Source: an uncultured Nitrososphaerota archaeon
Lineage (GTDB): Archaea > Thermoproteota > Nitrososphaeria > Nitrososphaerales > Gagatemarchaeaceae
Assembly (NCBI GenBank): GCA_963838925.1
Contig: CAWISW010000003.1
Location: 448,001-512,000, forward strand
Direction: 5' to 3'
DNA: 64,000 nt
Shown: piece after piece, positions 20,403 to 41,885 of the stretch
How positions within the stretch are numbered: the first letter of the stretch is position 1
How the letters are laid out: each line of letters begins with the position of its first letter
Made by a program: the position numbers and the translations under genes
Notes under the pieces: model-generated
Databases searched by the model: none
What the model saw: the letters and a program-made list of their open reading frames with translations, nothing else
Told to the model about the DNA's origin: nothing

Positions 20403-22433
20403 TTGTCCGGACCTTTTGAAGAGCTGTCGACTGAGCAAGAGAAGGCGTTTTCCCCGCCCATCAAGGAGATAATCCTCGAGAACTTCATGAGCTACGAGTA
20501 CGCCCGGATCCCGCTCAACCAGGGCCTCAACCTCATCGTCGGTCCCAACGGGGCGGGCAAGTCGTCCATCCTGCTCGCCATATCCGTGGCCTTCGGGCAG
20601 GCCTACACCGAGCGCTCGAGGAAGCTGAGCGACCTCATCAGGAGGGGCAAGGACATCGCAAGGGTCTCCCTAATCTTCGACAACCGGGTCAGGGAAGGGA
20701 AGAGGCCCATCCCATACTCAAAGGCCGACACCTTCATGCTCTCCCGCTACCTTCGGAAGGACGGCTCCTACTGGTACGAGGCCGACTACAAGGAGATAGA
20801 CAAGAGCGAGGTCGTGAGGCTCCTTCGCGAGTTCGGGATAAACCCCGACAACCTACTGATCATCATGCACCAGGGGATGATCGAGGAGCTGGGCGCGATC
20901 TCGCAGGAGCAGCGGCTCGTCATGGTGGAGGAGGCGGTGGGCTTCCGCGAGTACAGGGAGAGGATCCTCGCCGCGGAGGCGGACCTCAACAGCATGGTGA
21001 GCGAGGAGGGCTCGCTCGTCCAGCTCATCGACAACGCCAACCAGACGATAGAGTACTGGAAGCAGATCTACGACAGGTACCTTGAGAAGAAGAGGCTCGA
21101 GGAGCACAGGACCCTCCTCGAGAGGGAGCTGCTCTGGGCGCAGGAGGGGAAGCTCTCCCGTTCGCTTTCCTCGATGGCAGAGAGGCTGGAGGCAAAGCGC
21201 GAGTCGCTCGCCGACCTGAGGGAGCAGCAGAAGAAGGCCGGGGGCGAGGCGGAGGGGCACCGCAAGGCCCTGGGCGAGAGGCAGGTCGAGGTCAGGAAGC
21301 TCTACGGGGCTCTCATCAGGGCAGAGAGGGACCGCTCCGGACGCGAGTCCGCCCGCGAGGCGATGAAGGGGCTCCACGACGAGCTCGAGACGCTAACGAA
21401 GGACCTCGAGGAACTGGTGGGCAGCCCCAACGCGCTGGACTCGCGCAGGTCGAAGCGCATCAAGGAGTTCATCGAGTTCGCATCGAAGAAGTCTGGCAGC
21501 GACTCCGAGGAGGCCGGACGCAAGAAGACCGAGCTCGACAGGGAGGTCTCGTCTCTGCAGGCGGAAGTGAGCGGCGTCGAGGACGCGATAAGGAAGGTCA
21601 CCGACGATTACATCGCCCAGCGCGTGAGGTTCGAGGTCCTCGAGTACAGGACCAAGGTCACCGAGTCCGAGATCAGGGAGCTGGAGAGGTCGGAGAGGGA
21701 GGTCAGGGGAGAGCTCGACGCCATGAAGCCCGACCTGGAGAGGGCGGGCGAGAGGATAGTGACGCAGCGCGCGCCCTACGAGGTCTCCGAGGAGCTGAAG
21801 CTCGTCTCGGCCCAGCTGCAGAAGCTTCAGGACCTCCCCGACGACGCCGAGAAGATCTACAGGGACTACACGGGGAACCTCGAGGGCCTGAAGGGCAAGC
21901 TCGAGGAGCTCCAAGGCAACAAGAAGCTGATGCTGCTAGAGCTCGAGGAGAGGAAGAAGGCGTGGAAGAACGCCGTCCAGAGCCTCATCGACGAGGTCGC
22001 GCCCATCTACAAGCAGGTTCTCTCGACGGTCGGGGCGACGGGCGCCATCAGGCTGGACGAGGGAGGCTCCGTCGCCGAGGCCGGGCTTCAGCTCCTCGTC
22101 GGCTTCAAGGGCGCTGAGCCGGCGATCCTCGACCCTTACACGCAGAGCGGAGGCGAGAGGTCGGTCGCGCTGGTCGCGTTCATGTTGTCGCTCCAGAGCA
22201 GGATCATCTCTCCGCTGAGGGCCATGGACGAGTTCGACATCCACATGGACCCGCGCAACAGGGAGGCGATCTTCAAGATGATCCTCGCTCAGGGGAAGAG
22301 GAACCCCAACTCGCAGCACATCGTCATCACGCCGTCGATAATCTCCGTGGCGGACAGGACCGCCCACGTGATCACTGTCCAGTCTGTCCACGGCTCGTCC
22401 CAGGTGAAGGAGTATTCCGGCAGCAGAAGATAG
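20403..22433 (+). CDS. Short SMC-family ATPase with SMC5/6-like head (ClsN/Sph-like, no obvious hinge)
   Basis: LENFMSY, GPNGAGKSS, Q-loop MHQG, coiled coil, QSGGERSV, SPLRAMDEFDIHMDPRNR; 676 aa. Confidence 0.88.
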   Translation: MSGPFEELSTEQEKAFSPPIKEIILENFMSYEYARIPLNQGLNLIVGPNGAGKSSILLAISVAFGQAYTERSRKLSDLIRRGKDIARVSLIFDNRVREGKRPIPYSKADTFMLSRYLRKDGSYWYEADYKEIDKSEVVRLLREFGINPDNLLIIMHQGMIEELGAISQEQRLVMVEEAVGFREYRERILAAEADLNSMVSEEGSLVQLIDNANQTIEYWKQIYDRYLEKKRLEEHRTLLERELLWAQEGKLSRSLSSMAERLEAKRESLADLREQQKKAGGEAEGHRKALGERQVEVRKLYGALIRAERDRSGRESAREAMKGLHDELETLTKDLEELVGSPNALDSRRSKRIKEFIEFASKKSGSDSEEAGRKKTELDREVSSLQAEVSGVEDAIRKVTDDYIAQRVRFEVLEYRTKVTESEIRELERSEREVRGELDAMKPDLERAGERIVTQRAPYEVSEELKLVSAQLQKLQDLPDDAEKIYRDYTGNLEGLKGKLEELQGNKKLMLLELEERKKAWKNAVQSLIDEVAPIYKQVLSTVGATGAIRLDEGGSVAEAGLQLLVGFKGAEPAILDPYTQSGGERSVALVAFMLSLQSRIISPLRAMDEFDIHMDPRNREAIFKMILAQGKRNPNSQHIVITPSIISVADRTAHVITVQSVHGSSQVKEYSGSRR

Positions 22434-22458
22434 GGCTCGCGACAAGAAGCTCGAGGAC
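22414..22458 (+). pseudogene. Displaced native 5' stub of the kleisin gene (IPAAEDRARDKKLED)
   Basis: GCGACAAGAAGCTCGAGGAC versus GCGACAAGAAACTTGAAGAT in the intact gene (27188-27207), differing only at third positions; overlaps the smc stop; GGTGA upstream of an ATT. Confidence 0.55.
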
Positions 22459-22566
22459 GGGCTCTCCCGTGGAACCCTGAGGCGCGGCGGGAACCACGCC
22501 GGCTGCGGATGCGCCGTCGGCGAGCAGGGCGAGAGAGTCCACATCCAGCCGATTTCCGGAGCCTAG
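22441..22566 (+). pseudogene. tes: 3'-terminal fragment of tetraether lipid synthase (radical SAM)
   Basis: KKLEDGLSRGTLRRGGNHAGCGCAVGEQGERVHIQPISGA*, near-identical to 41402-41512. Confidence 0.7.
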
Positions 22567-22689
22567 ACAGGAAAGAACGAACCTCGCCGAGGGACTTTCC
22601 GTTGGCCAGGCTAGGGTCAAGGCAATCTTTGGGCGTCTAGGCGGAAGAATCGGAATCTTATTTCAGCGAAGTAGCAAGAATGAGCGAAT

Positions 22690-23123
22690 TTGCCGAATTA
22701 GTTAGATAAGGCGTAAATAATCGCGACGATGTTAATGCGAATAGGGCGATATGACTATTGGCAACTTGGTGCCAATGACGTCTGCTTACTCAGGATGGGG
22801 CGCGGTTGGTCGAGACCAAAAGAGCGGAGGAAAGCGAAGGTCGCATATCGAGGTCGAAGCCGCGATTCTCAGAGCGCTCGTTTCCGAGTATCTCACGATA
22901 AACCAGCTCGCGATCCGTGTGAACCTGAACAGAGTCCTTGCTAAGAACTATGTCAAGGAACTGTCTCAGAAAGGGCGGGTCGAAAGCAAGAAGACAAAAG
23001 GGCTCGCTAGGTACTCGGCCTCTCAGAACGGAGTCGCATGGTTGAAGCGCTTCGAGACCTTGGCAAGTAATCCGAGATACGGATTATAGATACCGGATGA
23101 TAGTTTCTGCCTGCCTTAACTAG
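22690..23123 (+). repeat. Approx. 430-bp module (promoter + wHTH gene + trailer), copy 1
   Basis: Aligns with 37558-37990 from ATTAGTTAGATAAGGC to TACCGGATGATAGTTTCTGCCTGC.TTAACTAG. Confidence 0.9.
22751..23089 (+). CDS. Archaeal winged-helix transcription regulator
   Basis: KRRSHIEV..AILRAL..LTINQLAIRVNLN..AK.YVKEL..KG..Y..SQNG..WL; paralogue at 37618. Confidence 0.8.
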   Translation: MTIGNLVPMTSAYSGWGAVGRDQKSGGKRRSHIEVEAAILRALVSEYLTINQLAIRVNLNRVLAKNYVKELSQKGRVESKKTKGLARYSASQNGVAWLKRFETLASNPRYGL

Positions 23124-23146
23124 TTGACAATTGCCTTTAAGCGCCA

Positions 23147-24481
23147 ATGATGCCAATTGCGCACTCGACGCGGTCGATAATCTTCCTAAGATCCTCAAAA
23201 ACAAAGAAAAGCTCGGTCTCGGCGCATGCGATGAGAACTGCGTTAACGATATCGGTATTGCTTTTGCTGGTCGCGGCTCGAACTCAACCAATTGGCGCAA
23301 CAACTTCGACGAGCTCCCACACACCAACTTCGAGATATGATGCAACTCGGGCGGCAAGCTCTATGGTTGCCGCGGAATCCTCAAACGTCTACGTCGGTAG
23401 CTACTCTGCGATTTCAGGTCTGAGTGTGCAATCTGGCGGGGCTCCGCTCTTCTGCGGCCCTATTTTTGTGTCAAGTTCAACTATTCTCAACCTGACCACG
23501 ACAAAGGAACCCGACACAGTGACATCTAACTCTAAGGAATGCTACTACCTCCCCACTTTCTACTATCCAAGTCACAGCGCAGATTCATTTTCGTCAGAGA
23601 GGCAGGCGACTTTCTATGTCGACAATTCGACCATGAAGGTGGCGCTTGTCATGGACACTGCGCGCGAACCTGTTTCATATTGGAAGTGCAGTTACTGCTG
23701 GTCTGGATATGAGGTAAAGTAGACAGCATATGCAGTCGCCTCCTATGTGGACGTCCCCTATGTATCCGACTCTTCTTCAAATGGATTTGTGGGCACTGTT
23801 AACAGCACACAATGCTGCATAGTTTCCACATGGGTCGGTGAGGGTGATGCGCAGGGCGCATCGGACAACAATTGGTCGCAAGACGGCTATGTCATCAACG
23901 ATGCCGGTGCATGGAGTCACTACGGCTATACCTACGGATTCTGGTATGCCTTCTTCCATGTAGGTGGAATCTCAACCGACAATGTCTTCGATCAATATTC
24001 AATGGATTCGTGTGTCAACGCAGGCGACAACGTCGAGAGCTACCTGGAGAAGGATGTTAGTGGCCTAAACTACCTCTATTGGGCAGAGATTGACGACCTG
24101 TCGAGTTCGAGTTGCAGCTTGACGACCGGCAACTACAACATGGACCTCAACTATGATTGGTCCTATGTGGAGTCCGAGGCCCCCAGCTACCACACGGACT
24201 CGGGAACGCCACCTCAACCGCAAACGGCGCAATGGCCATATTTCAATAACTACGCCCAAGCCTCTGCTTCGATGGGCATCTCCGCGGACGCATACGACTC
24301 AAGCTACACCGCGTATGGCTTCGACTCATCGACCGTAACAAACTATGGTAGCAACCCCACGCAAGGCGATTCCGCGTACACGCCTTGCGACAGTGATGAC
24401 AACTCTTATCCTAGCTCTTGGGCCTCGTCAACCACATTCTATGCCATGTATGGAGACAGTGAGTACGAAACGACGTGCTAG
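23147..24481 (+). pseudogene. Secreted G1-like glutamic peptidase interrupted by one in-frame TAG (23720-23722)
   Basis: ORFs 23147-23722 and 23747-24481 share a frame. Readthrough gives WSGYEVK*TAYAVASYVDVP..STWVG..SQDG..FWY..VNAGD..ESEAP; signal peptide from ATG 23231. Confidence 0.6.
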
Positions 24482-24530
24482 GAGTGACCACTGAACAAAG
24501 CATCCATATGGATCTCGATTAAAAATCGCC

Positions 24531-24947
24531 TTAAGCAGGAGTTTCTTGAAAGGCCGAAATCGTTTGGTAAAGAAATATTACGAACCCTATGAAGATTACG
24601 ATTAAGGGAAATATGTAGTAAGAGATTGCCGGGACCGGCGGTCGAAGGATCGTAAGCAGGAAGACGAGCGCGGCTCCGAAAAACGCGGAAAAAGTGCCGG
24701 ACAATGGAATGACCATTCGCCGGAATCGTATCATGTTCTCGAAAACCAAACGGTCCGCCACGTAACCATCACGTGTCTCCTGAATCAGGCCAAACCGTAA
24801 GAGCTTTTGAACGTGATATTCCGCAACAGATGGTGAGCTGAGTCCGAGGTTTCGATGAATGTCGGAAAGACGAATCGGACCACGTCTGTAAACATGGCGA
24901 TAGACCTTGAGAGTAGTTCCCGAAATAGCATCGTTTGCCGTGGGCAA
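24531..24947 (-). CDS. wHTH regulator with two C-terminal TM helices
   Basis: GTTLKVY..LGLSSPSVAEYHVQKL..GLI; paralogue of 60227-60679. Confidence 0.8.
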   Translation of the reverse strand: MPTANDAISGTTLKVYRHVYRRGPIRLSDIHRNLGLSSPSVAEYHVQKLLRFGLIQETRDGYVADRLVFENMIRFRRMVIPLSGTFSAFFGAALVFLLTILRPPVPAISYYIFPLIVIFIGFVIFLYQTISAFQETPA

Positions 24948-25095
24948 TCATCGGGTTAATTGTCGACGCGGGTATTTTGCCTTTCGAAGAGGCGCTCGAA
25001 GTCCTCTGAAGAGAAGGAATACATAACACGTTTGAATTATTCGCGGAGAGGATTTCTAAACCATAGCAATATACTCGTCCGCGAACGTTTCTAAA

Positions 25096-25773
25096 GTGAT
25101 GTCAGAATATCGACGACAACTCCTCACTGGGGTAGTCCTAGCAATACTACTCTCGGCACTTTTTGCGTTCGAATTGGAGTCGTACTTCTCACCTGCTAAG
25201 AGTAACGAACCCTCCCTAGCCAAATCCAGTTCCATAGATACAGATTTGGGACTCAATTTCACTTTGACCGCTAAACCTTCAAGTCTTCAAGAGGGAGATA
25301 ACGTGACGATTGGGGTGTATCTCTTCAACATACTTCCTTCGACTAACAACCTTACTTCTCCGACTTCAAATCTTTATTCGCTGGGGCCGTGTCCCACGAC
25401 TCTTCCGTTTTGGTTCGAAGTTATTCAGGGAAACTATGAGGCCGATAACATGTCTCAAGGGCAGCCGCTCGCATTGTGGCAGGCATACCCTTACTGCGCA
25501 AATAGCATTCCTGTCCAGAACTACTCGTTTGAAGTGCGCAGCGATAATGTAACTGTCGCACTTGCTACCACAACTCTTGGTGAGAAGCAAGTCATTTTTT
25601 CCGAATCTGCTTCCTACATCGACAGCTATTTTGGATCATGGGGAGTGCTGACCCATCCCGACTCGCGTTTCGCGTTGTTCCAACCTGGAGAGTACACGGT
25701 AGCGGCGGGAGACTCTTGGGGGCAAGAAGACATACTACATTTCCGAGTTGTGGCTACACGAACAAGCCCGTAG
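25096..25773 (+). CDS. Membrane-anchored extracellular protein
   Basis: N-terminal TM, Ig-like beta pattern, many N-x-S/T sequons, FQPGEYTVAAGDSWGQ. Confidence 0.7.
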   Translation: MMSEYRRQLLTGVVLAILLSALFAFELESYFSPAKSNEPSLAKSSSIDTDLGLNFTLTAKPSSLQEGDNVTIGVYLFNILPSTNNLTSPTSNLYSLGPCPTTLPFWFEVIQGNYEADNMSQGQPLALWQAYPYCANSIPVQNYSFEVRSDNVTVALATTTLGEKQVIFSESASYIDSYFGSWGVLTHPDSRFALFQPGEYTVAAGDSWGQEDILHFRVVATRTSP

Positions 25774-25898
25774 CCTCACCTCAGCATCGCACTCTTCTGC
25801 TTGTTCAAGGTAATACACGAGTGGCACCGCGACAAGATTCACCAAAAGTGCGGCTCCCGATTGAGGTGTAGATAGCTAAGAACGACAAGAAGCTCGAA
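25774..25898 (+). pseudogene. tes: Degraded tes fragment
   Basis: PHLSIALFCLFKVIHEWHRDKIHQKCG(frameshift)PIEV*IAKNDKKLE aligns with PDLRIIPFCSFNVIPEWYRDKIQQKYGLPIEAWEAKNGKKLE at 41288-41413. Confidence 0.7.
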
Positions 25899-25961
25899 AG
25901 GCAATTGCCTCGAACTAAGCTGAGGGTGGGTGCAGATATCCTAGCGCAATCTTGATTTGTA

Positions 25962-27059
25962 GTGCAATCCAAGCTGAAATGCGAGTCTCACCTCTCAACT
26001 AGTCGGAATGAAGGTGTGACCAATCTCGACCAATTTGTCGTCTATGAAACCAAGGGAGGTCCTTCTCATTACCTCCGCCTACGTGAACGCCTTTACAACT
26101 TTGGAAGAGAAGACATCATTGAGGCTCGAGTAGCAAGAACTTCAGCGCCAGAGAAAGAACTCCGTCTTTACACAAGTGCAAGCTACGCAGATCCCCACCT
26201 CAACGTCTCTCATCTGAATCCAGCTCCGCGCGAGTCATTCCGAATATTGTCTCTCAGGAAATTTGGCGTACCGCATTTTGTAGCGAACTTCAACCAGCAC
26301 AAGCCGAAAGCCTTTCGAAATATCACGCTCTCCTATTCCGATGGCATAGTCAACATGAAAGTCGAGAATTTGGTCGCAGTGATCAAGAATCCCAAGCTCA
26401 GCGCTCGCGGGCAAGGACCTATTCTTGAAGGAAGCATAATAGAAGGCACAAGACGCGGGAACATCCGAATCGCCCAAGAATCCGAATCTTTCAGTCTGCA
26501 CTTCGGGGACTATTCGACCAACCATCCCCGGATAGTTCACATGAAGGCTATCGAGTCTTACATCGAGGTCGGATACGTGCAGAGTTCGCACGAGTCTGAC
26601 TATCGCACGAGACGCGTTCCTGCTGTTTCCATCGGGCCCGCGAAAGGCAAATCCGAGGACGAAGTGAAGAACAGATTCACCGAGATAGACAGCAGCAACA
26701 TGACAAAGAAGGAGATAAGGGCTTGGATTGACACTGAAGGTAACATCTACTCGAGGGGTATGGACGGTAAATCTGGCCCTCAACTGGCTGTCACTCAGAA
26801 GCACAGGGAACCGTTGGATGTCTTTGCAAGGAGCGTTGTAGGGTTGGGAGTGAGGTGCAAAGTCTCGCGGGATGGGCATGCGTGTTACGTAGCCAAAATT
26901 ACCGACACCGAAGGAGTTGCCAAGATAATCAAAGAGGTTGGGCCGTTTCGAACTCCTCAGAAATGTGAACAGGTACGTCAGTTCGAGAAGATGTTGAAAA
27001 GAGAGAGAAAGGAAAGGAGACGAGTGATAGAAAGATCGAAGGCACTGTTGGACCTGTAG
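25962..27059 (+). CDS. Free-standing LAGLIDADG endonuclease with uncharacterised N-terminal domain
   Basis: EIRAWIDTEGNI..PQLAVTQK.REPL..F..LGV..YVAKIT..KII..V.PF..K is a single-motif LAGLIDADG pattern. Confidence 0.75.
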   Translation: MQSKLKCESHLSTSRNEGVTNLDQFVVYETKGGPSHYLRLRERLYNFGREDIIEARVARTSAPEKELRLYTSASYADPHLNVSHLNPAPRESFRILSLRKFGVPHFVANFNQHKPKAFRNITLSYSDGIVNMKVENLVAVIKNPKLSARGQGPILEGSIIEGTRRGNIRIAQESESFSLHFGDYSTNHPRIVHMKAIESYIEVGYVQSSHESDYRTRRVPAVSIGPAKGKSEDEVKNRFTEIDSSNMTKKEIRAWIDTEGNIYSRGMDGKSGPQLAVTQKHREPLDVFARSVVGLGVRCKVSRDGHACYVAKITDTEGVAKIIKEVGPFRTPQKCEQVRQFEKMLKRERKERRRVIERSKALLDL

Positions 27060-27091
27060 AGTTCTCCGTGGGCATTATCTTCGTGCCAAGC

Positions 27092-27099
27092 TTATAATA
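27092..27099 (+). promoter_or_regulatory. TATA-like box supplied by island A for kleisin-KITE genes
   Basis: TTATAATA about 40 nt upstream of ATG 27139. Confidence 0.45.
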
Positions 27100-27138
27100 C
27101 AAGTCGGTAAGCGCGGCTCATCATTAGGGCGATATGAG

Positions 27139-27933
27139 ATGGCAACTCGGGAGGGAACTCCGAATAGAGAGAGTAGAAAGGACTCAAGCGACAAGAAACT
27201 TGAAGATATATTGCGCTTGATTGAATTATGCCGCAATATCCAGTCGAGCAGCGTTAACCCCTTCGAGGTGGACATCAAGGAGAAGCTCTTGGTCCTAAAG
27301 AGGCACCTGCCCGAGTGGAATGTAATTGACGTGATGCTGAAGGATTCAGAGGCGATGCAACAACTTGTTGCGATAGTAAAGTTACAAGATCTGTACATTA
27401 AACACAGGGCCTCCGCGCTCTACATCGACCCTCTGCTCCTCGAGCTCAAGATAACGCTCATCACCAAGGAGGAGCTCGCGGAGAGCTTCGCAAAGTGCTG
27501 GCACCCCATCGCGCAGCTCGACCAGCTCACCCCGCGCGGCCTCGAGAAGGCCTTCGTCTACTGGCGGGAGCTCGTACCATTCAGCGAGAGGTTCAAGGAA
27601 CAGTTCGGGAACTACGGGGAGCCGACCGGGATGATAGGGCTCGAGGAGCTCGAGTCGTTGAGCATCTTCACGAAGGAGGAGTTCCAGACCAGGATCAACG
27701 CGATCACCAAGGAACTGGTGGAGAGGTGCGACGGCAAGGAGATAGACTACCGCGGTTTCATAAAGGGGAAGGACCCCGAGGAGACGGCCTTGCGGGGATA
27801 TCTCATAGCGTTCGTGGTCACCGAGGGGAGGGCCACGCTGAGGACCGACCCGCTCACCGAGCAGATCTTCATCTCGGTGATCGAAGGGAAGCCGGACGAC
27901 GAGACGAAATCGGTGGCGATCGTAGTCAGATGA
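27139..27933 (+). CDS. Kleisin (ScpA-like) subunit; first 88 codons recoded
   Basis: VNPFEVDI (ScpA DPWDIDI-like N-terminus) and C-terminal winged helix; position between SMC-like and KITE genes. Confidence 0.7.
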   Translation: MATREGTPNRESRKDSSDKKLEDILRLIELCRNIQSSSVNPFEVDIKEKLLVLKRHLPEWNVIDVMLKDSEAMQQLVAIVKLQDLYIKHRASALYIDPLLLELKITLITKEELAESFAKCWHPIAQLDQLTPRGLEKAFVYWRELVPFSERFKEQFGNYGEPTGMIGLEELESLSIFTKEEFQTRINAITKELVERCDGKEIDYRGFIKGKDPEETALRGYLIAFVVTEGRATLRTDPLTEQIFISVIEGKPDDETKSVAIVVR

Positions 27934-28541: not shown

Positions 28542-28583
28542 GATTACAGGCACTGCGTCAAGGAAGGATATTGCGTAATCGTC

Positions 28584-29087: not shown

Positions 29088-29150
29088 TTCTTACTCGGGA
29101 ATACCCGCTGGTGATATTTAACCGCATATTTCGGTTCAAGCGACTTCGTG

Positions 29151-32072: not shown

Positions 32073-32125
32073 CTGAAAACTTCAACCGCCTTCTCCGTCG
32101 CTTACCTAACTACGTTTCCCTTAGG

Positions 32126-33823: not shown

Positions 33824-33854
33824 TAGAATCTGACCTGAAGCCGGCTCCGGAGTT

Positions 33855-34250
33855 TTATAAGCGTAATTGCGCGACGATGGCCAGTTCGGCAGAAGACCTG
33901 AACAGGTTGGCCATCACCGGCTCCAGTGAGCAAGTTACCGGGTTGACCTTCAGACGCAGCGTCTCCAACGTGGTCACTCCGAGCAGGAGTTCGTCTCCCG
34001 GCCCCACCATTACGGGAATCGCTCTTCTGGATGACCCATATTCGACTCTGGCGTCAGCGAGGCCGGCCTCCTTGACACTGCCGTCTGCGAGCTTGACGCG
34101 GATTACCTCGTTGGGAACGATTCCTAACCTTCTGGCGAGCGAAGGCGAAATCTTCGTGTAGAGGGCGCCGGTGTCAACCAGCATCTCGACATCCTCGTTG
34201 CCCTTCTCGCCTTGCAAGCGCACAGTCGCCCAAGTCTCGCCCATCTTCAT
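33855..34250 (-). CDS. Clan AA (retropepsin-like) aspartic protease
   Basis: LVDTGA, LADG, LLGVTTLE.L.L.VNP. Confidence 0.85.
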   Translation of the reverse strand: MKMGETWATVRLQGEKGNEDVEMLVDTGALYTKISPSLARRLGIVPNEVIRVKLADGSVKEAGLADARVEYGSSRRAIPVMVGPGDELLLGVTTLETLRLKVNPVTCSLEPVMANLFRSSAELAIVAQLRL

Positions 34251-34369
34251 TGGTCACCAGTGGAGACAGTCCGCAGATAAATATTAACGCCAATGAGTCG
34301 CGTCAGAGCCAAGTCGCCAGCCATCTCCCAAACTTATATCATGTGGCGCGGACGGCGCCTCCGGAAAAC

Positions 34370-35371
34370 ATGGCAAGGATGTGGCACGACGACGACGTCA
34401 GTTTGGGGCCGATAAAGGGCGAAACGATCGCTGTCATCGGCTACGGTATCCAAGGAGCGGCCCAGGCGAGCAACCTGAGGGACTCAGGGCTAAAGGTGGT
34501 CGTGGGGCTGCGCGAGGGAGGGAAGAGCTGGGCCAAGGCCAAGAAGGAGGGCCACAAGGTCATGACCGTCCCCGACGCGGTGAAGGCGGCGGATTTGGTC
34601 CATGTGCTGATTCCTGATATGCAACAAGCCCGCACCTTCAAGGAAGAGATTCGTCCGTATCTGAAGAAGGACATGGCTCTCTCCTTCTCGCATGGCGCAG
34701 CAATCCATTGGAAGTGGATAGTTCCCCCAAAAAACGTCGACGTAATCATGCTCGCTCCAAAAGCACCAGGGCAGAGAGTGAGAGAGCTTTACCTTGAAAA
34801 CTTTGGCACACCGGCGCTCGTTGCGGTCTACCAAGACGCAACTGGAAGAGCTTGGGACAGAATACTGGGGATGGCGAAGGGCGTCGGGACGACGAGGGCT
34901 GGCGTTCTGGAGACGACCTTCCGGGAGGAGACCGAGACGGATTGGTTCGGAGAACAAGTCGATCTCTGCGGCGGGTCGCACCGGATGATCTTGAGCGCAT
35001 TCGAGACTTTGGTCGAAGCAGGTTATTCCCCTGAAGGGGCTTACTTCGAAGTCCTGCACGAACTCAAGCTCATCGTGGACTTGATGCAAAAATACGGGAT
35101 TGCAGGCATGTATCGCAGAGTTAGCGAAACCGCGAGATATGGTGGTCTGACTAGGGGGCAAGTTGCCATCGGACCCGAGGTCAAGAAGAACATGAAGAAG
35201 GTCCTCAAGGAGATACAGAGCGGCAAGTTCGCGAAGGAATGGGTCAGCGTCTACGAGAAGGAGGGGGAGAAGAGCTTCGGCAAGTACATGGCTGAATTGG
35301 ACAAACACCAAATCGAGGTCGTGGGCAGGAAGCTGCGGAAGATGATGTGGCCCAACGACCAAGTGACGTAA
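34370..35371 (+). CDS. ilvC: Ketol-acid reductoisomerase; mosaic, recoded from about 34592
   Basis: IGYGIQG..QA.NLRDSG, LIPD, FSHG, APKAPG, ETETDWFGEQ, YFEVLHELKLIVDL, SETARYG; TATA-like CTTATAT upstream. Confidence 0.96.
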   Translation: MARMWHDDDVSLGPIKGETIAVIGYGIQGAAQASNLRDSGLKVVVGLREGGKSWAKAKKEGHKVMTVPDAVKAADLVHVLIPDMQQARTFKEEIRPYLKKDMALSFSHGAAIHWKWIVPPKNVDVIMLAPKAPGQRVRELYLENFGTPALVAVYQDATGRAWDRILGMAKGVGTTRAGVLETTFREETETDWFGEQVDLCGGSHRMILSAFETLVEAGYSPEGAYFEVLHELKLIVDLMQKYGIAGMYRRVSETARYGGLTRGQVAIGPEVKKNMKKVLKEIQSGKFAKEWVSVYEKEGEKSFGKYMAELDKHQIEVVGRKLRKMMWPNDQVT

Positions 35372-35401
35372 TTCTTCAGAAGCTCTCTAGCCAAAGACGC
35401 G

Positions 35402-37057
35402 CTATTCCTTTGGCCACACTTTTCGAAGGTGTAGCTCGCCTGTCGAGTTCGCACAATCCCAATCGAGTAAGGCCGCATAGGCCCCCTTGACCTTTCGAGT
35501 TTCCGGCCCAATATCGTAATTCTTGTACTGCCCCAACTGGATGCTTGCTTGTTTGAAGGCCGGTTCTAGGTAAGTCCACCACTTGTGCTCGAAGAAATAC
35601 AAGTCGCTCGAGGATTCTCGCCGCATCAAGCTGTCTGGACCAGGATACGTCGACCCCATCTGCCATTGGCCTTCTGAGCTGGGATGTCTCCGCACCTCTA
35701 TCCAGCCAGCATGAGACAAAATAGCGGGGTTAATCTCCTCGGCCACCTTGCCTTTCTCAGCGATTATTTCGTATTTGCTTTCGGCATGCGAAAGACGGGA
35801 GTTTACGTGATTCTGCACCGACGAATCCACCTCAAACGAAAAGCGATTCTCCGTCCCCTCTTCCTTCGAAAGCAGCCTCACCTTGTCGATAATCAGGCCA
35901 GTCTTGAACTGCTCAATTTCCTGACGAAGAGAGGCTCTCGCCGCAGTCACTTCTCTTTCCTTGGGGACGAAGACAAACTTCAAACGATCTCGAGTTGCGA
36001 TGAATCTGCTGATTTTTCCGGTCCCGTCATACGCTGCCCTCGAATGTTCGCCATCGAACCAGAACCTGAATTGCCTTTTTCCCTCTTGAAACCGTGCAAC
36101 CAGAAGTACTTCGAGGCTGTAAGAATCCAGATGAGAATCTTTGAAGGGGAAAAAGTGGCCATCGACCTTTAGGCCCAACGTATTTTCTCGGAAGCTCAGT
36201 CTAGCATTTTTCATGTCTTCCTGTCTATGACTATTGAAGTCTTTGATGAACTGTTCTTGGGAATATGCCCTGACAGTCAGCAGTTCAAACAAATCCCCCT
36301 GCTTTCCCCCGAGCTTGCCTACACGGAGGTGAACAATTTTGCTCTCTCTATTGAGCTGCATTTCCCCGAAGACTTTCCTTGTCAGGTTCTCAGACGCGGA
36401 AAGGCTTCGTATTCCCAGTTCTAGTATTCCTCTCCTGTCTTTCGAAAAGCGCTCGTGAGGCAAGCCGGCCGATTCCAACGCAGCTTGTCTAAAGGTCAGC
36501 TGAGGCCAACCACGGATGGTCTCAACTCTGAATGACTTTCTTTGCTCGATGGAGATGAGTACGATCTTGTAGCTTTCGCGAGCCTTGAGATTCTGCCTGT
36601 ACTCGAAGGGAGCATACAAGAAGATACATTTTCTCTTTGCTCCGATGTGCATCGCATCGAAGCTCCCGACGCCTTCGATTCTACCCTTGATGCTGTATAC
36701 CCTGCCCACCCGTAGATGGAAACCAGCTGCTTTCTCGAACGCAGACTGCAATATTCGAAACCTGAAATTTCCGTCAACAGTTGCCATTCTAGATGCTCTG
36801 GCAGTAAAGATTCCAAGGTATTGGTCTCTGCTCTTTGAAGTGCTTCCGACGGCGATAGCGGATTCATGCTCAGGGGTGTGCCTACTCATTCCTTCATCTG
36901 AATCAGGCGCGGATTTCACAGCCGCAGATTGGGATCCAGTGTCGGGGCGAACCGAAGAAATCGAGGGTTCGACGGGAGGGACCGGAGACAGCGCAGCATC
37001 TGAGACTCGTATTCCCAACTTTGGAGTCGCAGTTATGGACGAGATAACATCGGCCAT
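35402..37057 (-). CDS. Putative PD-(D/E)XK endonuclease with N-terminal domain shared with the LAGLIDADG protein
   Basis: KGKVAEE..GPDSL..YFFEHKW..A..QLGQY catalytic pattern; true start may be downstream of 37057. Confidence 0.68.
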   Translation of the reverse strand: MADVISSITATPKLGIRVSDAALSPVPPVEPSISSVRPDTGSQSAAVKSAPDSDEGMSRHTPEHESAIAVGSTSKSRDQYLGIFTARASRMATVDGNFRFRILQSAFEKAAGFHLRVGRVYSIKGRIEGVGSFDAMHIGAKRKCIFLYAPFEYRQNLKARESYKIVLISIEQRKSFRVETIRGWPQLTFRQAALESAGLPHERFSKDRRGILELGIRSLSASENLTRKVFGEMQLNRESKIVHLRVGKLGGKQGDLFELLTVRAYSQEQFIKDFNSHRQEDMKNARLSFRENTLGLKVDGHFFPFKDSHLDSYSLEVLLVARFQEGKRQFRFWFDGEHSRAAYDGTGKISRFIATRDRLKFVFVPKEREVTAARASLRQEIEQFKTGLIIDKVRLLSKEEGTENRFSFEVDSSVQNHVNSRLSHAESKYEIIAEKGKVAEEINPAILSHAGWIEVRRHPSSEGQWQMGSTYPGPDSLMRRESSSDLYFFEHKWWTYLEPAFKQASIQLGQYKNYDIGPETRKVKGAYAALLDWDCANSTGELHLRKVWPKE

Positions 37058-37203
37058 CGTAACGGGGTAACGGAGACAGGGCGGGGTAGAAGGAAAACGG
37101 AGGTGAGGCAGGAAGGAGGATAGGAGAACACAACGGGGCAGTGAAGGTCGGAGACGAAAAATGAACGTGAGATGATACGTTACCTTCGCATAAAAGCATA
37201 TGT

Positions 37204-37315
37204 TTGACTAGTCTCCACTTAACGCAACGTCAACAATCGCGTTGACATCAGAGAGTCTCATCGTGTCAAATGTCTGATAGTCAATTCGCAAAATCATGTC
37301 AAGTAGATAGTTGAC
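37204..37315. promoter_or_regulatory. GTCAA-N8-TTGAC palindrome array
   Basis: Full sites at 37229-37246 and 37298-37315; half sites at 37204, 37265 and 37280. Confidence 0.5.
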
Positions 37316-37423
37316 TCTGGGAAAAGCGAATCTTGCAATGAATTGCTATTCTTGGAACTAGAATTTCCAGCTCTATGATTGGCTAAAAGCCGTTTGTGTG
37401 GACCTCGCTCTCATGACGACTCA

Positions 37424-37470
37424 TAGCAAAGAGGAGGAATTCCGCAGGTAGCCGATTATGGGGACCAAGA
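37424..37470 (+). pseudogene. tes: Heavily degraded tes 3'-terminal remnant
   Basis: GAGGAATTCCGCAGGTAGCCGATT versus GAGGAAGTCCACATCCAGCCGATT (41489-41512), 19/24 identical; the following sequence resembles 22574-22600. Confidence 0.45.
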
Positions 37471-37557
37471 GAACAAGCATTCGCCCCGGGTGATTTCTTG
37501 AGGGTAGAGGATATTGAGGGGAAACAATTCGCCAATAGGAGAGAAGAATCGGCGCAA

Positions 37558-37990
37558 TTGCCAGATTAGTTAGATAAGGCATAAATAATCGCGACTACGT
37601 TAATGCAAATAGGTCTCATGACTATTGGCAATCTCGTGCCAATGACGTTTTCCTACTCCGCATGGGGCACAGCGGATGAAGATCGAAAGAACAGAGGAAA
37701 GCGAAGGTCGCACATCGAGGTTCAGGCATCGATTCTCAGGGCGCTCGCTTCCGAGTATCTCACGATAAACCAGCTTGCAATCCGCGTGAACCTGAACAGG
37801 GTTCTCGCCAAGACCTACGTAAAAGAGCTGTCACAGAAAGGACGGATCGAGAGCAAGAAGATGAAAGGGCTGGAGAGATACTCCGCCACGCAGAGCGGAG
37901 TCGCCTGGCTGAAGCGCTTCGAGACCTTGGTCCGTGATTAGAGATACGGATTCTAGTTACCGGATGATAGTTTCTGCCTGCTTTAACTAG
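37558..37990 (+). repeat. Approx. 430-bp wHTH module, copy 2
   Basis: Aligns with 22690-23123. Confidence 0.9.
37618..37941 (+). CDS. Archaeal winged-helix transcription regulator
   Basis: Near-identical core to 22751-23089 (SEYLTINQLAIRVNLNRVLAK). Confidence 0.8.
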   Translation: MTIGNLVPMTFSYSAWGTADEDRKNRGKRRSHIEVQASILRALASEYLTINQLAIRVNLNRVLAKTYVKELSQKGRIESKKMKGLERYSATQSGVAWLKRFETLVRD

Positions 37991-38029
37991 GCGCGCTGAA
38001 ATCTATACGTCTGAGTATGTGACTGCTTA

Positions 38030-39760
38030 ATGGTCGTCTATGATCGGAAAGCGCTGACCGCAAAAACTGGTTTGAACGCCGCAATCACACTTTCCATCCT
38101 CTCTCTGTTGATTCTCTCAAGAGGACTTCCGAGCCAAAGTCTCGTGTTTGGCTACCCTTCAACCGCATCATCCGTGCCTCCGAAGCCGGTTGTTCTCGGG
38201 GCGGCCACGGGCTTTGGGGCTGTTGCTGGTCTGGGAGTCAATAACAGCGGTGATTCGAAAGTTGCGGGAAATCTTGGTTCTACCGGCCCAATCACAGGAT
38301 TTCCGCCTGGGAACGTGACGGGTACAATACACTCTGACGACTCGCTCGCTCATCAAGCAACTGACGATTTGGCAAGGTCGTACGGTGCACTCTCAGAGGA
38401 TTCATGCAACGTGGAACTGGCAAGCCAGAACTTGGCGGGACTAGATCTCCAACCAGGAGTATACTGCTATTCCTCGGGGGCATTATTGTCAGGAACGCTC
38501 ACGCTCAACCCAAATCATGATGCTAACGCCATGTATGTCTTCGAGATAGGTGGCGGGTTAACCCTATCGAATGACTCCCAGATTACAATGATAGGTGGCG
38601 ACGGATGCAACGTCTTTTGGGAAATTAGTGGCACCACGTTCATCGGTGCTCAAACCACGTTCGCCGGAAGTATACTATCAGCGGGCAATATCATGATGGG
38701 TGCTGGCGCGAACATCACGGGGGCAGCAATGTCCGAACACGGTTCTTTGGTGATGCATTCCGATTCTGTCGGTGCCCAGTGTTCTAGTTACATGTGGAAG
38801 CATCAGGTAGCGGCCACCAGCGCAGGGACAACAGGTTGCTTCCAGGTCTCCTATCCTAGTGCAGAGTGGGTGAGCGAACCTTGTCTGTACCATGTTGGCC
38901 AACCGCATACCGTTGGCCCTCCAGTCGGAGGTTGCGACACTGAGACCAGCACAGGGACGTGCGATTATGCGGGAAAGAGCAGTGGAACTCTGATCAACCA
39001 TGCCGAGGACAGCTTCCTAACTGGAGGTGGTTACAGCGTTAATGGAATCAGTGGCTCCTGCTCAGCTGGCACTCGGGAATATGACCAATCAAGCGGAGAC
39101 AACTGCGCATACTCAATCCAATTGAATTCGAATAGATGGGTGATTTCGGGGATATGTGGGACGGGAACCAATGCTTGCTGGGGTTGGGAGCAATTCGTGT
39201 TTACGAGTGATTACACTCAGGCTAGTTACTACGTAGACGTGGAACTGGAGGTAATCAATTACGAGAACTACTACGGCTCTGGAAGTTGCAGCAACCTCGG
39301 AACAGACTGGGGTTATGTTGGCGCGGGGAACTGTGGAACCTTCGAGATCAAGTTGGGGGTGACCAGCGCCGCCGAAGTCGATCCGGCGAATTCTCCATCA
39401 GCGTTCAGCTCTCTCTACATAGACGCGGCGGTAGCCTCTAGCGGTAACGACCTCGCTAACGTCTGCGACAGTTCACAATGTTGGGAGAACACCGTGCCCG
39501 ATAATCTGTTTCCAACGGGGTACAACCTCGTCAACGAATGGACCTACGAAGAATACAATGTATTTGGATCAGGCGGAGGCGACGAAGCCATCTGGAATAC
39601 TGGAACCAACATGACCATTTACGGGAACATGTATGACTCTAGCGGCAGCTTAATTTCGGACTCGTGTACTCAGTTCAGCGACACGGGCGAGAGTAGCAAT
39701 CTCGGAGCCGGCACATGCACCGCGGGTACTGGAACCTGGCATTTCACAGAAACGGCGTGA
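38030..39760 (+). CDS. Secreted DUF3494 ice-binding-like domain fused to a Cys-rich thermopsin-like domain
   Basis: Signal/TM; V.LGAA..F..AG, ITGFPPG..TGTIH, L.PGVYC, GTLTL, NVFW, F.GSIL (DUF3494); then YSIQLNSN, WEQFV, VFGSGGG, DTGESSNL. Confidence 0.75.
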   Translation: MVVYDRKALTAKTGLNAAITLSILSLLILSRGLPSQSLVFGYPSTASSVPPKPVVLGAATGFGAVAGLGVNNSGDSKVAGNLGSTGPITGFPPGNVTGTIHSDDSLAHQATDDLARSYGALSEDSCNVELASQNLAGLDLQPGVYCYSSGALLSGTLTLNPNHDANAMYVFEIGGGLTLSNDSQITMIGGDGCNVFWEISGTTFIGAQTTFAGSILSAGNIMMGAGANITGAAMSEHGSLVMHSDSVGAQCSSYMWKHQVAATSAGTTGCFQVSYPSAEWVSEPCLYHVGQPHTVGPPVGGCDTETSTGTCDYAGKSSGTLINHAEDSFLTGGGYSVNGISGSCSAGTREYDQSSGDNCAYSIQLNSNRWVISGICGTGTNACWGWEQFVFTSDYTQASYYVDVELEVINYENYYGSGSCSNLGTDWGYVGAGNCGTFEIKLGVTSAAEVDPANSPSAFSSLYIDAAVASSGNDLANVCDSSQCWENTVPDNLFPTGYNLVNEWTYEEYNVFGSGGGDEAIWNTGTNMTIYGNMYDSSGSLISDSCTQFSDTGESSNLGAGTCTAGTGTWHFTETA

Positions 39761-39909
39761 GAAGTCATTGATTGATGAATGGACGACCTGGATGCCCAGG
39801 CAACCGATGCGGGTGGCATTTCGGATTCGGTCGAAGATCCTTCAATATCACTTCAGCAAAGTCCCAGTGCATCTCTTATTAGAAACCTGAGCCCGTCTTC
39901 TATCTTGGG

Positions 39910-41196
39910 TTGGAGTTCTTGTCAGGGCATCGAAACCATTCTGAGTCGAATCGCACATGGATTGTGGTCGCGGGTACTGTCGCGGCGGGCCTCATCGCCT
40001 CGGGTCTGCTACTTGCGCCTTCGCTAGGAGCTGTACGAACGGTGACGCAAACGGTTACGTCGACATCGACAGAGACGCTGACGTCGATTTCCTCTTCTCT
40101 AAATAATTCTACTTCCCCAACCCACATCGGTGCAAGTATCCTCGCGAACATTACTGTCGGGACTGATCCTCAAACCCCTCTATTCGATTCAATGAATGGG
40201 GACCTATACGTGCCTAATCATAGCTCCGACGATATCTCCGTCATCTCGGGAGCGACTAACTCATTAGTAGCTACGGTGAAAGTTGGCTCTAGCCCCACCA
40301 CACCTGCACTGGACCCGACCAATGGGCAAGTATACGTCCCGAACGAAGGCTCAGAGAGTGTCTCCGTAATTTCTGGAGTAACAAACGTCGTTATCGCGAC
40401 GATACGAGTAGGTTCTGATCCCCGTACTCCCGTCTTCGATCCCACCAACGACGACATGTACGTCGCCGACCGGCTTTCGGGCGAAGCCTCGGTGATATCT
40501 GGGACCACAAACACTGTTGTCTCAACCATAACCTTCGCGGCTAATCCGCTCCCTCCTGCCTTCGACCAAATCACTCGCGACCTTTACTTTCCCGTCTCGA
40601 ATGGCACAATGTATGACACCATTGCCGTCGTATCAGGTGACACCAACACGCTTGTAGCAAGTGTGCTAGTGGGGCCTGTCCCGTGGACACCTGCCTTCAA
40701 TCCTCTAAACGGAGACATCTACGTTCCAGTATCGGGCCTCCCGGGGCGGCCGAATGACACGGTTTCGGTGATAGACGGAGAGACCAACAATGTGGTCGCG
40801 ACGGACGAGGTCGGTACTTCCCCGTACACGCCAGTCGTAGACTTGGCAAATGGAGAAATCTTCGTTCCTCATCTTAATGCAGATAACATTCCAATCTCAA
40901 TCCTTTCCGGGAAAACGAATTCGGTTGTCGGATTTTTGGCGATTGGCAATGGCTCGCAAACGACGTTGTTTGATCATGTTTCCGGAAACCTTTGGGTTTT
41001 CGGATTTGCTGCAGGCTCAATCACAATGTTAGTCATGGGACAGGACAACTTCGTCGCCACAATCGGGTTACCAAACGGCGAAGGCCGGGGCCTTGGGATT
41101 GGTGTGTCGACACCAGCGATTGACACGACAAACGGAGACATCTATGTACCCGCTGGAGCCTGCATCCTGGTTATTGGGCCTTCAACCGGGGACTGA
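39910..41196 (+). CDS. Membrane-anchored YVTN/YncE-like beta-propeller protein
   Basis: TM plus Thr/Ser linker, then about seven repeats of VG..P.TP..D..NG..YVPN..S..VSVISG.TN.VVAT. Confidence 0.85.
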   Translation: MEFLSGHRNHSESNRTWIVVAGTVAAGLIASGLLLAPSLGAVRTVTQTVTSTSTETLTSISSSLNNSTSPTHIGASILANITVGTDPQTPLFDSMNGDLYVPNHSSDDISVISGATNSLVATVKVGSSPTTPALDPTNGQVYVPNEGSESVSVISGVTNVVIATIRVGSDPRTPVFDPTNDDMYVADRLSGEASVISGTTNTVVSTITFAANPLPPAFDQITRDLYFPVSNGTMYDTIAVVSGDTNTLVASVLVGPVPWTPAFNPLNGDIYVPVSGLPGRPNDTVSVIDGETNNVVATDEVGTSPYTPVVDLANGEIFVPHLNADNIPISILSGKTNSVVGFLAIGNGSQTTLFDHVSGNLWVFGFAAGSITMLVMGQDNFVATIGLPNGEGRGLGIGVSTPAIDTTNGDIYVPAGACILVIGPSTGD

Positions 41197-41236
41197 CGGC
41201 AAAAACGACTCTTCCGGGTATAGAGGCAACTGGAAT

Positions 41237-41513
41237 TACAATCAGGACGAGGAGCGCCTACAGCGCTGCGACATCCACTACCTCACTCCTGACCTGAGGA
41301 TCATCCCCTTCTGCAGCTTCAACGTCATCCCCGAATGGTACAGGGACAAGATCCAGCAAAAGTATGGACTGCCAATCGAGGCCTGGGAAGCGAAGAACGG
41401 CAAGAAGCTCGAGGACGGCCTCTACCGTGGGACCTTGAGGCGGGGCGGCCACCACGCCGGCTGCGGCTGCGCAATAGGCGAGCAGGGCGAGGAAGTCCAC
41501 ATCCAGCCGATTA
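41237..41513 (+). pseudogene. tes: 3' fragment of tetraether lipid synthase (GDGT-MAS, radical SAM)
   Basis: YNQDEERLQRCDIHYLTPDLRIIPFCSFNVIPEWYRDKIQQKY matches the recalled Tes C-terminal motif (YNxDxERxxRCxIHYxTPDxRIIPFC); host-like codons; no start or radical SAM core. Confidence 0.78.
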
Positions 41514-41570
41514 ACGGACTTAATAGGCCGTCAAAAGCAAGTCAAAAAGATAAACAGATGGGAATCGTAG

Positions 41571-41879
41571 CTGAAGCTCATCGTCGACCTGGTCCAGAAA
41601 TACGGGATCTCCGGGATGTATCGCAGAGTGAGCGAGACCGCGAGATACGGCGGCCTGACGCGAGGGCAGCGGGCCATCGGCCCTGAGGTGAAGAAGGGTA
41701 TGAAGAAGGACCTCAAGGAGATCCAGGACGGGACCTTCGCGAAGGAGTGGGTCAGCGTTTACAACAAGGAGGGCCAAAAGTCATTCCAGAAGTACATGGA
41801 CAAGCTGGAAGCCCACCAGATCGAGAAGGTGGGGAAGAAACTCCGGAAGATGATGTGGCCCAACGACCAGGTAACCTGA
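41571..41879 (+). pseudogene. ilvC: Displaced 3' stub of ilvC (102 codons)
   Basis: LKLIVDL..WPNDQVT*; 16 aa differences from the intact copy; no 5' part. Confidence 0.92.
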
Positions 41880-41885
41880 CCTGGC

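Follow-up and report, generated by a model that had tools for sequence, protein, structure and literature searches.

Islands carrying nuclease genes beside replaced gene ends in a Nitrososphaerales chromosome: probable free-standing homing endonucleases of the gene-hybrid type

The window described here is a stretch of 64,000 nt (C3:448001-512000) from G000, a metagenome-assembled genome of the archaeal order Nitrososphaerales. It carries two low-GC islands: island 1 (22.4-27.4 kb), between an SMC-like gene and a kleisin-like gene, and island 2 (34.6-41.9 kb), at ilvC. Each island places a nuclease gene directly beside a foreign, in-frame end of the conserved gene, leaves that gene whole, and holds a displaced piece of its native end at the far side. 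Relatives have the same sites empty, other carriers have them filled by related nucleases, and the catalytic motifs of both nucleases appear intact. Judged from these sequence comparisons, both islands are probably built around free-standing homing endonucleases of the 'gene hybrid' type. A nuclease gene and the foreign gene segment beside it are constant, a stub with a fixed boundary is usually present, and the cargo varies. Archaeal homing endonucleases are known mainly from introns and inteins, and our literature searches returned no report of free-standing homing endonucleases that split essential genes of archaeal chromosomes and repair them with a carried end.

The G000 assembly comprises 1.84 Mb in 3 contigs at ~61% GC, and the window lies in a contig of 818 kb. 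GC falls to ~50% in two stretches of the window, 22.5-27.5 kb and 35-41.5 kb, and GC content at third codon positions (GC3) ranges from 0.81 to 0.92 in its host genes, which served as the reference. Comparison with relatives indicates that both islands are insertions. The G000 flanks are 84-90% identical to G017 and 79-84% to G031; G031 also carries both islands, and the two carriers are not each other's closest relatives, so carriage is patchy.

The ilvC gene is a mosaic whose native 3' end is displaced

The features that define the ilvC site are as follows (window coordinates).

34250-34580, + strand: native 5' part of ilvC, with 85-97% identity to G018 and G006 over roughly the first 300 nt, placed in the native clade by the 5' tree
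34581-35371, + strand: foreign tract of ilvC, from about nt 330 to the stop, 58-78% identical to G018 and 77-93% to G017
35402-37057, - strand: gene for a predicted 551-aa (amino acid) nuclease with a disordered N-terminus, a beta-barrel module and a C-terminal PD-(D/E)xK domain (motif, model and fold matches)
41570-41879, + strand: displaced native ilvC 3' stub, 103 codons without an internal stop (KARI_C, 7e-23)

The resident gene (34250-35371) is an intact open reading frame (ORF) with GC3 of 0.64-0.76, compared with 0.86 in the stub. In trees of the middle and 3' segments it forms a clade with G017 and G008 (support 100/100 and 99/97, respectively). The stub (309 nt) shares 78% identity with the resident 3' end. 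In the tree its partner is G018 (support 91/89); its identity to G018 and G006 is 88-89%, versus 74-76% for the resident 3' end, and an 87-codon ORF within it (41616-41879) carries the KARI_C match. The ilvC stop at 35371 lies ~30 nt from the 3' end of the nuclease gene at 35402, and the island continues in the order ilvC, 551-aa gene on the minus strand, winged helix-turn-helix (wHTH) gene, ice-binding-like gene, YVTN propeller gene, tes-like remnant and ilvC stub. The four genomes used for the empty-site comparison (G017, G008, G018 and G006) have lhr-ilvD-ilvC followed by ~1 kb, E2 and a 573-aa gene, with no island between. G017 and G008 nevertheless carry the foreign ilvC allele, and we found no nuclease remnant in either.

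A second carrier, G031, appears to be a clean case of the same ilvC hybrid, native to about nt 800, then foreign, with a native-like stub. In 60-nt windows as far as about nt 780, identity between its resident ilvC and those of G018 and G006 is 80-97% (GC3 0.8-0.9), whereas the last 300 nt show 65-74% identity to all other sequences and GC3 of 0.53-0.6. The stub lies 7.6 kb downstream and is 84-87% identical to the native clade, versus 72-74% for the resident end. At this site the G000 and G031 nucleases are 33% identical and the replacement 3' ends 67% identical. The two stubs begin within 1-3 nt of each other, before CTGAAGCTCATCGT; the stub boundary is at nt 812 of ilvC, and the DNA just upstream of the two stub starts is unrelated. 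A fixed chromosomal boundary beside variable DNA is what is expected of a site-specific break followed by homologous repair on one side.

Further ilvC pieces were seen in relatives. G018 holds two decayed ilvC 3' fragments (L016 7473-7583 and 13060-13170) in a low-GC region ~780 kb from its ilvC. Both begin at the same position as the G000 and G031 stubs, as if stub-bearing DNA had moved; the decayed ilvC fragment of G018 read at 150 nt has this start too. In G009 (L017, ~9200-10210), ilvC is read in two overlapping frames with an internal stop, which means a frameshift in the gene or a mistake in the sequence. Beside ilvC in G015 stands a HerA-linked homologue of the 551-aa protein; GC3 of that ilvC is uniform and there is no stub, so this neighbourhood was set aside as possibly coincidental.

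Island 1 separates the SMC-like gene from a kleisin-like gene with a replaced 5' end

20403-22433, + strand: SMC-like ATPase gene, native left flank of island 1 (SMC_N, 1.3e-34; GC3 0.92)
22434-22459, + strand: displaced native kleisin-like 5' stub of ~26 nt, coding ..DKKLED, matching the native kleisin start of relatives
25962-27059, + strand: gene for a predicted 365-aa nuclease with an N-terminal beta-barrel module and a single LAGLIDADG domain (motif, model and fold match)
27139-27378, + strand: replacement, AT-richer 5' segment of the kleisin-like gene, codons 1-80 (GC3 0.61)
27379-27933, + strand: native-like remainder of the kleisin-like gene (GC3 0.87; alignment with relatives)

In relatives, the 3' end of the SMC-like gene abuts or overlaps the kleisin start. 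The window still has the native kleisin start immediately 3' of the smc stop (read by eye), and the whole kleisin-like gene (27139-27933) is an intact ORF beyond the island. Its first 80 codons carry many A/T third-position changes relative to empty-site relatives, with 31-87% identity over 27139-27378 versus 82-97% further 3'. The 365-aa nuclease gene stops at 27059, ~80 nt before the kleisin start, and the full order is SMC-like gene, wHTH gene, two genes with signal-like N-termini, a wHTH-TM (transmembrane) gene on the other strand, a secreted-type gene, the 365-aa gene and the kleisin-like gene. An initial annotation, made from the letters of the window, had proposed that each island leaves a recoded host gene intact, that the 3' end of a nuclease gene adjoins the recoded segment, and that a displaced piece of the same gene sits at the far end. 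All three features are borne out at ilvC and at the kleisin-like gene, the kleisin piece being very short and beyond what that annotation could have located. A tblastn search for stubs of the kleisin-like gene and of two further candidate targets discussed below, the Obg-like GTPase gene and Dph6, found none, and it missed the ~26-nt kleisin stub as well; a tblastx comparison among 20 loci yielded so many compositional matches that it was set aside. The kleisin-like protein has no match in Pfam or NCBIfam; a protein Atlas score of 0.95 to clusters with Nse4_C in 11-76% of their members and the position directly after the SMC-like gene make the 'kleisin' identity a lead only.

We examined 15 loci of the genus at this junction, those of G004, G013, G005 and G014 being left out. 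At 13 of them smc directly abuts or overlaps kleisin, an empty site; the other two, in G031 and G007, have a homologue of the 365-aa protein between the genes. Together with the four island-free ilvC sites, these are the empty alleles that the initial annotation had suggested looking for. Conversely, every full-length LAGLIDADG homologue with readable context stands at smc|kleisin (4/4: G000, G031, G007 and the metagenome contig L143), with identities to the window's protein of 81% in G031 and 46% in both G007 and L143. Kleisin stubs are visible in G000, G007 and L143, and those of the last two are longer. G007, a single contig of 2.25 Mb, has no cargo: after smc come a kleisin stub of ~50 nt, then the nuclease gene, and then a recoded kleisin, with the stop of the former overlapped by the start region of the latter; in L143, an smc 92% identical to that of the window is followed by a stub coding DKKLEDILRLIELC and then the nuclease gene. 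A foreign, in-frame replacement end of kleisin stands beside the endonuclease ORF in G000, G031 and G007.

This recurrence bears directly on the possibility that the islands are an assembly chimera, which we find barely credible. Public contigs over 34000-42500 are short (151-538 nt among the pieces listed), low in depth and bridge no junction, so they neither confirm nor question the G000 assembly. The same architecture is nevertheless present in G031 (both islands), G007 and L143, and the window lies in one assembled unit, the 818-kb contig.

Two other arrangements were noted around these genes. At locus L073 of G034, the kleisin match falls inside an open frame of 1049 aa, in which the SMC-like and kleisin-like proteins are apparently fused. 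Between the scpB-like gene and lhr of the window, 28584-29087 (- strand) encodes a 167-aa coiled-coil protein of 33-nt (11-residue) tandem repeats.

Two different predicted cutting domains are joined to one N-terminal module

A search of 5.8 billion clustered proteins gave the 365-aa protein only 19 relatives at E <= 1e-3. The motif EIRAWIDTEG (E251-G260) is invariant in 15 aligned sequences of its family, and E259 is presumably the counterpart of the catalytic Asp of I-CreI. The AlphaFold model has a predicted local distance difference test score (pLDDT) of 81.5, and residues 240-357 match PI-PfuI (Z 11.0, root-mean-square deviation 2.4, 105 aligned) and I-CreI (Z 9.9); the top 19 structural matches of this part are all LAGLIDADG proteins. 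By sequence, the Pfam LAGLIDADG_3 match (E 0.0086) falls under the family cut-off, and PADLOC has no match. Residues 19-107 match the small beta-barrel protein PHS018 (Z 6.5). The gene has GC3 of 0.55 versus ~0.9 for its neighbours. A profile built from this family matched 35 genomes in a sample of 401 from the order, 33 of them in the same family and one in another, with G000 as the remaining one.

The 551-aa protein belongs to no Pfam, NCBIfam or PADLOC family; a search of 1.84 billion representatives yielded 174 relatives at E <= 1e-3. E440, H458, P459, G473 and E490 are invariant in 10 sequences, and D475 and K492 are at least 90% conserved, which fits the E..PD..ExK pattern of PD-(D/E)xK nucleases. 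The predicted model has a pLDDT of 73.7, and residues 78-175 match PHS018 at Z 9.6. A Foldseek search with the whole model gave spurious beta-propeller matches, PHS018 being the one good match (probability 1.00, 100 columns). The two proteins share a stretch of 87 residues (25% identity, E 2e-8), suggesting that one N-terminal module has been joined to two different cutting domains.

One further feature lies upstream of the 551-aa gene.

37058-37286, no strand assigned: region upstream of the 551-aa gene, conserved with G031 (83-85% identical to L051 10494-11002)

Between the G000 and G031 genes of this type, the first ~45 codons and the upstream DNA are ~84% identical, compared with 33% for the proteins. 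In the window, the first ~45-60 codons (36924-37057), which are predicted to be disordered, are far better conserved than the rest. This head and its upstream DNA also occur as isolated fragments or as heads of different proteins in G009, G034, G006, G018, G001 and G031.

Other candidate targets and settings of the 551-aa family

Compared with G000, G009 has a 9.1-kb insertion, and at its edge the gene for a 551-aa homologue (33% identical) is arranged 3'-to-3' with that for an Obg-like GTPase. In the GTPase gene, the final ~240 nt show a drop in GC3 from 0.85-1.0 to 0.45-0.75 and in identity to the G000 orthologue from ~88% to 67-77%. With its recoded 3' tract and no stub, this case would match ordinary intronless homing with co-conversion. 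At the Dph6 loci of G011 and G012, a nuclease gene or its remnant lies upstream of the gene and the GC3 dip is mild, so that Dph6 as a target is suggestive only.

A three-gene set was observed with longer homologues (670-1070 aa, nuclease part C-terminal) at L054, L055, L057, L058, L059 and L060, which are loci of G015, G006, G014, G016, G033 and G034, respectively. Upstream is a HerA/DUF87 ATPase of ~770-1000 aa with a hydrophobic-looking N-terminus and a weak CedD match, and downstream is a ~200-aa protein of no known family. Frameshifts are present in some copies. The set may be a defence or DNA-transfer system.

Cargo cassettes and tes remnants

The remaining features of the islands are cargo genes and 3' remnants of tes.

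22440-22566, + strand: left tes 3' remnant, meeting the kleisin stub at the common 15-nt AAGAAGCTCGAGGAC (84-87% identical to other tes remnants)
22676-23089, + strand: wHTH gene with a conserved upstream stretch, copy 1 (HTH_45, 4.6e-7; 82-86% identical to 37544-37917)
23147-23722, + strand: cargo gene, signal-like N-terminus (ORF; no Pfam family)
23747-24481, + strand: cargo gene, signal-like N-terminus (ORF; no Pfam family)
24531-24947, - strand: cargo wHTH-TM gene (weak wHTH matches)
25096-25773, + strand: cargo gene, signal-like N-terminus (ORF; no Pfam family)
25774-25898, + strand: right tes remnant, ending at AAGAAGCTCGA (74-79% identical to the tes-remnant part just upstream of the left remnant's part)
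37544-37941, + strand: wHTH gene, copy 2 (HTH_45, 1.3e-8; repeats D2 and D7)
38030-39760, + strand: ice-binding-like protein gene (Ice_binding, 2.7e-38)
39910-41196, + strand: YVTN beta-propeller protein gene (beta_rpt_yvtn, 3.7e-24)
41261-41545, + strand: tes 3' remnant (90-95% aa identity, both to the full-length Tes proteins in relatives and to the other remnants)

At the protein level, the remnants share 84-95% identity with the C-terminus of a full-length relative (L094:91-1773), which matches NF045702, Tes (tetraether lipid synthase), at 691 bits against a cut-off of 450; no full-length tes was found in the G000 assembly. In relatives, remnants that begin at varied codons, from 397 to 544, are arrayed behind the 3' end of tes, a spread that speaks against a single fixed att site. 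These arrays, in which cassettes separate tes 3' remnants of varying length, form a hypervariable hot spot in many genomes of the genus, including G000 (C2:1-9000 and C3:441346-441600) and relatives (L101-L107). The two wHTH genes of the window are 82% identical as DNA, and GC3 of the island 1 cargo (23147-25773) is 0.49-0.63. The cargo of the G031 island differs from that of G000 and includes a LamG-domain protein.

Of the two remnants in island 1, the left one begins at the KKLED codons of tes and continues to the stop, and the right one extends up to these codons; in tes coordinates they overlap by 16 nt. The kleisin stub ends in the same 15 nt, and its junction with the left remnant was read directly. 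This layout and the shared 15 nt indicate that the cassette is a circularly permuted unit of a tes array and that it entered the stub by microhomology after the nuclease. The claim that tes remnants bound the cassettes thus holds on both sides of island 1, and on one side only of island 2. The further claim that cargo cassettes are integral to the plan did not survive the comparison, given this mode of entry and the cargo-free G007.

A further cassette and a toxin gene pair lie elsewhere in G000. At C3:286022-288464, a low-GC cassette of a wHTH gene and two genes with signal-like N-termini is found upstream of Dph6 (diphthamide synthase) without a nuclease; the same site holds a 551-aa homologue or remnant in G011 and G012. 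Just upstream of the window, C3:443960-445527 (L148 9960-11527) carries an AbiEii-type nucleotidyltransferase toxin gene and a wHTH gene, resembling a type IV toxin-antitoxin pair.

The cargo raises the alternative that these are ordinary flexible islands, brought in by homology-facilitated illegitimate recombination that was anchored in conserved genes. The nucleases would then be passengers with, for example, defence or repair functions and would not drive the insertion. Surface-protein cassettes at other hot spots without a nuclease (the one upstream of Dph6 and the tes arrays), the arrival of the island 1 cargo by microhomology, and the linkage of part of the nuclease family to HerA-like ATPases would all fit. 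However, this alternative leaves unexplained why nucleases as little as 46% identical occupy smc|kleisin in 4/4 cases, why G007 has a nuclease and a stub without cargo, and why one ilvC junction is common to two very different nucleases. We consider it unlikely.

Search for integration machinery

Pfam searches found no integrase or transposase domain among the scanned island ORFs of G000, G031 and G009, and within the islands of the window we found no terminal inverted repeats and no tRNA or Rfam family, in keeping with the initial annotation, which had recognised no integrase, transposase or terminal inverted repeats. A gene at G000 C3:436872-438206, guessed to be an integrase, has no Pfam support. 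The lone PF00589 match in the assembly lies ~434 kb from the window start. In the alignment, resident and stub ilvC share identical runs of only 11-14 nt, inside a diverged duplication of ~300 nt; a short att core may lie among them.

These results bear on the alternative that the islands are decayed integrase-borne elements, in which a lost or distant tyrosine recombinase inserted at att sites within genes and brought the replacement ends. There is precedent for such an outcome, as e14 brings a replacement gene end at icd. The ilvC stub boundary is fixed, and one PF00589 gene is present in the assembly. Thaumarchaeal elements integrate into the 3'-distal parts of protein genes, including those for dihydroxy-acid dehydratase and a diphthamide biosynthesis protein (PMC6563490). 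However, no integrase is found among the scanned island ORFs of G000, G031 and G009, and the short identical runs lie within duplications of ~300 nt at 67-78% identity, unlike the short att sites described there. The tes stubs begin at many positions, from aa 397 to 544, and the constant partners of the replaced ends are nuclease genes rather than recombinase genes. We regard integrase-borne elements as quite unlikely. They and plain illegitimate acquisition are the main rivals, and neither accounts for the fidelity of the nucleases to their sites.

Proposed mechanism

How free-standing homing endonucleases could have produced these islands can be set out from the arrangement of the loci; cleavage, immunity and the repair route are what we infer. 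The nuclease gene would travel linked to the foreign part of its target, the kleisin-like 5' end or the ilvC 3' part, and the nuclease would cut the naive allele near nt 812 of ilvC or near codon 30 of kleisin. The break would then be repaired from the element-bearing copy. One homology arm would be the linked replacement segment and the native gene beyond it; on the other side, the arm would be the stub with downstream DNA, or the end would be joined directly at the break. The replacement segment would keep the host gene whole and, differing around the junction, is presumed to be uncuttable, while the native remainder would be left behind as the stub and DNA between the nuclease promoter and the stub would be carried along as cargo. 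The wHTH and surface-protein genes of island 1 would be a later arrival from a tes-linked cassette array via the 15-nt microhomology. Repair that copies the replacement allele alone would yield a nuclease-free resistant allele, as in G017 and G008. The home-and-rescue scheme of the initial annotation, in which a nuclease cuts naive alleles and a linked recoded segment rescues the gene, holds as far as the linkage of nuclease and foreign target segment, the empty sites, the native stubs, the lack of a recognisable integrase and the recurrence at the same sites; the cutting and rescue themselves are a plausible extension.

Several observations weigh against homing endonucleases of this type. The recoded ilvC segment is foreign, but in G000 it begins ~480 nt upstream of the stub boundary (about nt 330 versus nt 812), and it is shared with the island-free G017 and G008, so that the 'recoded' allele is also an ordinary allele and the history was not a single simple event. 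No GTPase stub was found anywhere in G009 by whole-genome search, and tblastn gave no clear Dph6 stub. Many 551-aa homologues stand behind a membrane HerA-like ATPase and before the ~200-aa partner, a setting that points to cellular or defence functions for some family members. The fold matches of residues ~430-551 of the 551-aa protein are middling, at Z 7.1 to LHK-Exo (a lambda-type exonuclease), 6.1 to Hjc and 5.8 to I-Ssp6803I, where Z 8 would be secure. There are few carriers, and G000 and G031 may be partly related by descent. With the G000 genome at 87% completeness, the part that is not assembled could encode an integrase. Finally, the non-nuclease regulator WhiA, which has a LAGLIDADG fold, also matches the 365-aa model, at Z 10.8.

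The WhiA match, together with the operon orientation between smc and kleisin, would suit a LAGLIDADG protein that has been domesticated as a non-mobile DNA-binding or accessory subunit of an SMC-kleisin operon. This seems very unlikely for a protein absent from 13/15 loci, encoded at GC3 0.55 among neighbours at ~0.9, flanked by a kleisin stub and a replaced 5' end as marks of insertion, and invariant at the acidic residues of its motif.

Relation to known systems

The closest counterparts of the proposed homing endonucleases are mobile endonuclease ORFs that make gene hybrids in the fungal mitochondria of Allomyces macrogynus (atp6) and Glomus sp. (atp6, atp9, cox2 and nad3), as described in PMC3630166. 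There, LAGLIDADG or GIY-YIG ORFs sit in the 3' part of a conserved gene, a foreign in-frame C-terminus is inserted, the native C-terminus persists downstream and is closer to that of relatives, and the Allomyces endonuclease is reported to be biochemically responsible for mobility. The likeness is close: the archaeal nucleases stand beside a foreign in-frame gene end at ilvC (G000 and G031) and kleisin (G000, G031 and G007), and the retained native ilvC end is nearer to relatives than the inserted one (G000 and G031). The suggestion in the initial annotation that the architecture is new in kind is therefore superseded by these fungal ORFs. The principle is already known from fungal mitochondria, and what appears to be new is its occurrence in archaeal chromosomes and with extra cargo genes. 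Unlike in the fungal hybrids, the setting is an archaeal chromosome and the nuclease is not fused in frame: at ilvC it lies on the opposite strand, and at kleisin its gene stands separately upstream. Replacement extends to a 5' end in addition to a 3' end, kilobases of cargo are present, and the nuclease architectures are new, with a shared beta-barrel module joined to LAGLIDADG or PD-(D/E)xK.

The T4-like Seg and Mob enzymes ('intronless homing') are GIY-YIG or HNH enzymes that act during co-infection. Free-standing homing endonucleases of T4-like phages cut nuclease-less genomes nearby, with co-conversion of flanking markers (PMC2790892). The islands resemble these systems in that a nuclease gene lies between or beside conserved genes, and the G009 GTPase case fits; in contrast, a duplicated stub or replacement gene end is not typical of Seg and Mob. 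Integrated elements of Thaumarchaeota at 3'-distal gene parts restore the gene end and carry genes for integrases or casposases, and their att or target-site duplications are short (PMC6563490). They share with the islands the lineage and the conserved-gene 3'-distal targets, whereas the search of the islands turned up no recombinase and the duplications there are long and divergent. I-Ssp6803I is a homing enzyme with a PD-(D/E)xK core that the 551-aa protein resembles weakly (Z 5.8), and it differs in being intron-encoded, small (a 148-residue chain) and without a beta-barrel module. Engineered home-and-rescue drives cut a naive essential gene and supply a linked, recoded, uncuttable rescue copy. 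Those drives are synthetic and RNA-guided and work in diploid animals, so they are an analogy only.

Implications

A wider picture is possible, although we hold it tentatively and with the balance somewhat against it. These may be modular homing endonucleases particular to one Nitrososphaerales family, in which a beta-barrel targeting module is combined with interchangeable LAGLIDADG or PD-(D/E)xK cutters. They would act as natural home-and-rescue drives on essential genes, namely ilvC, the SMC partner, the Obg-like GTPase gene and perhaps diphthamide synthase. Their islands would double as landing pads, by way of which surface-protein cassettes pass from one hot spot to another, and a selfish nuclease would so spread adaptive variation of the cell surface between species.

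If the nucleases cut as proposed, the 'gene hybrid' strategy of mitochondria would have evolved independently in archaeal chromosomes, and the family would offer two nuclease architectures that are new and whose target sites are long and predictable. It would also be a natural example of a cargo-carrying drive, and it would explain the mosaic housekeeping genes of these soil archaea, including the nuclease-free resistant alleles.

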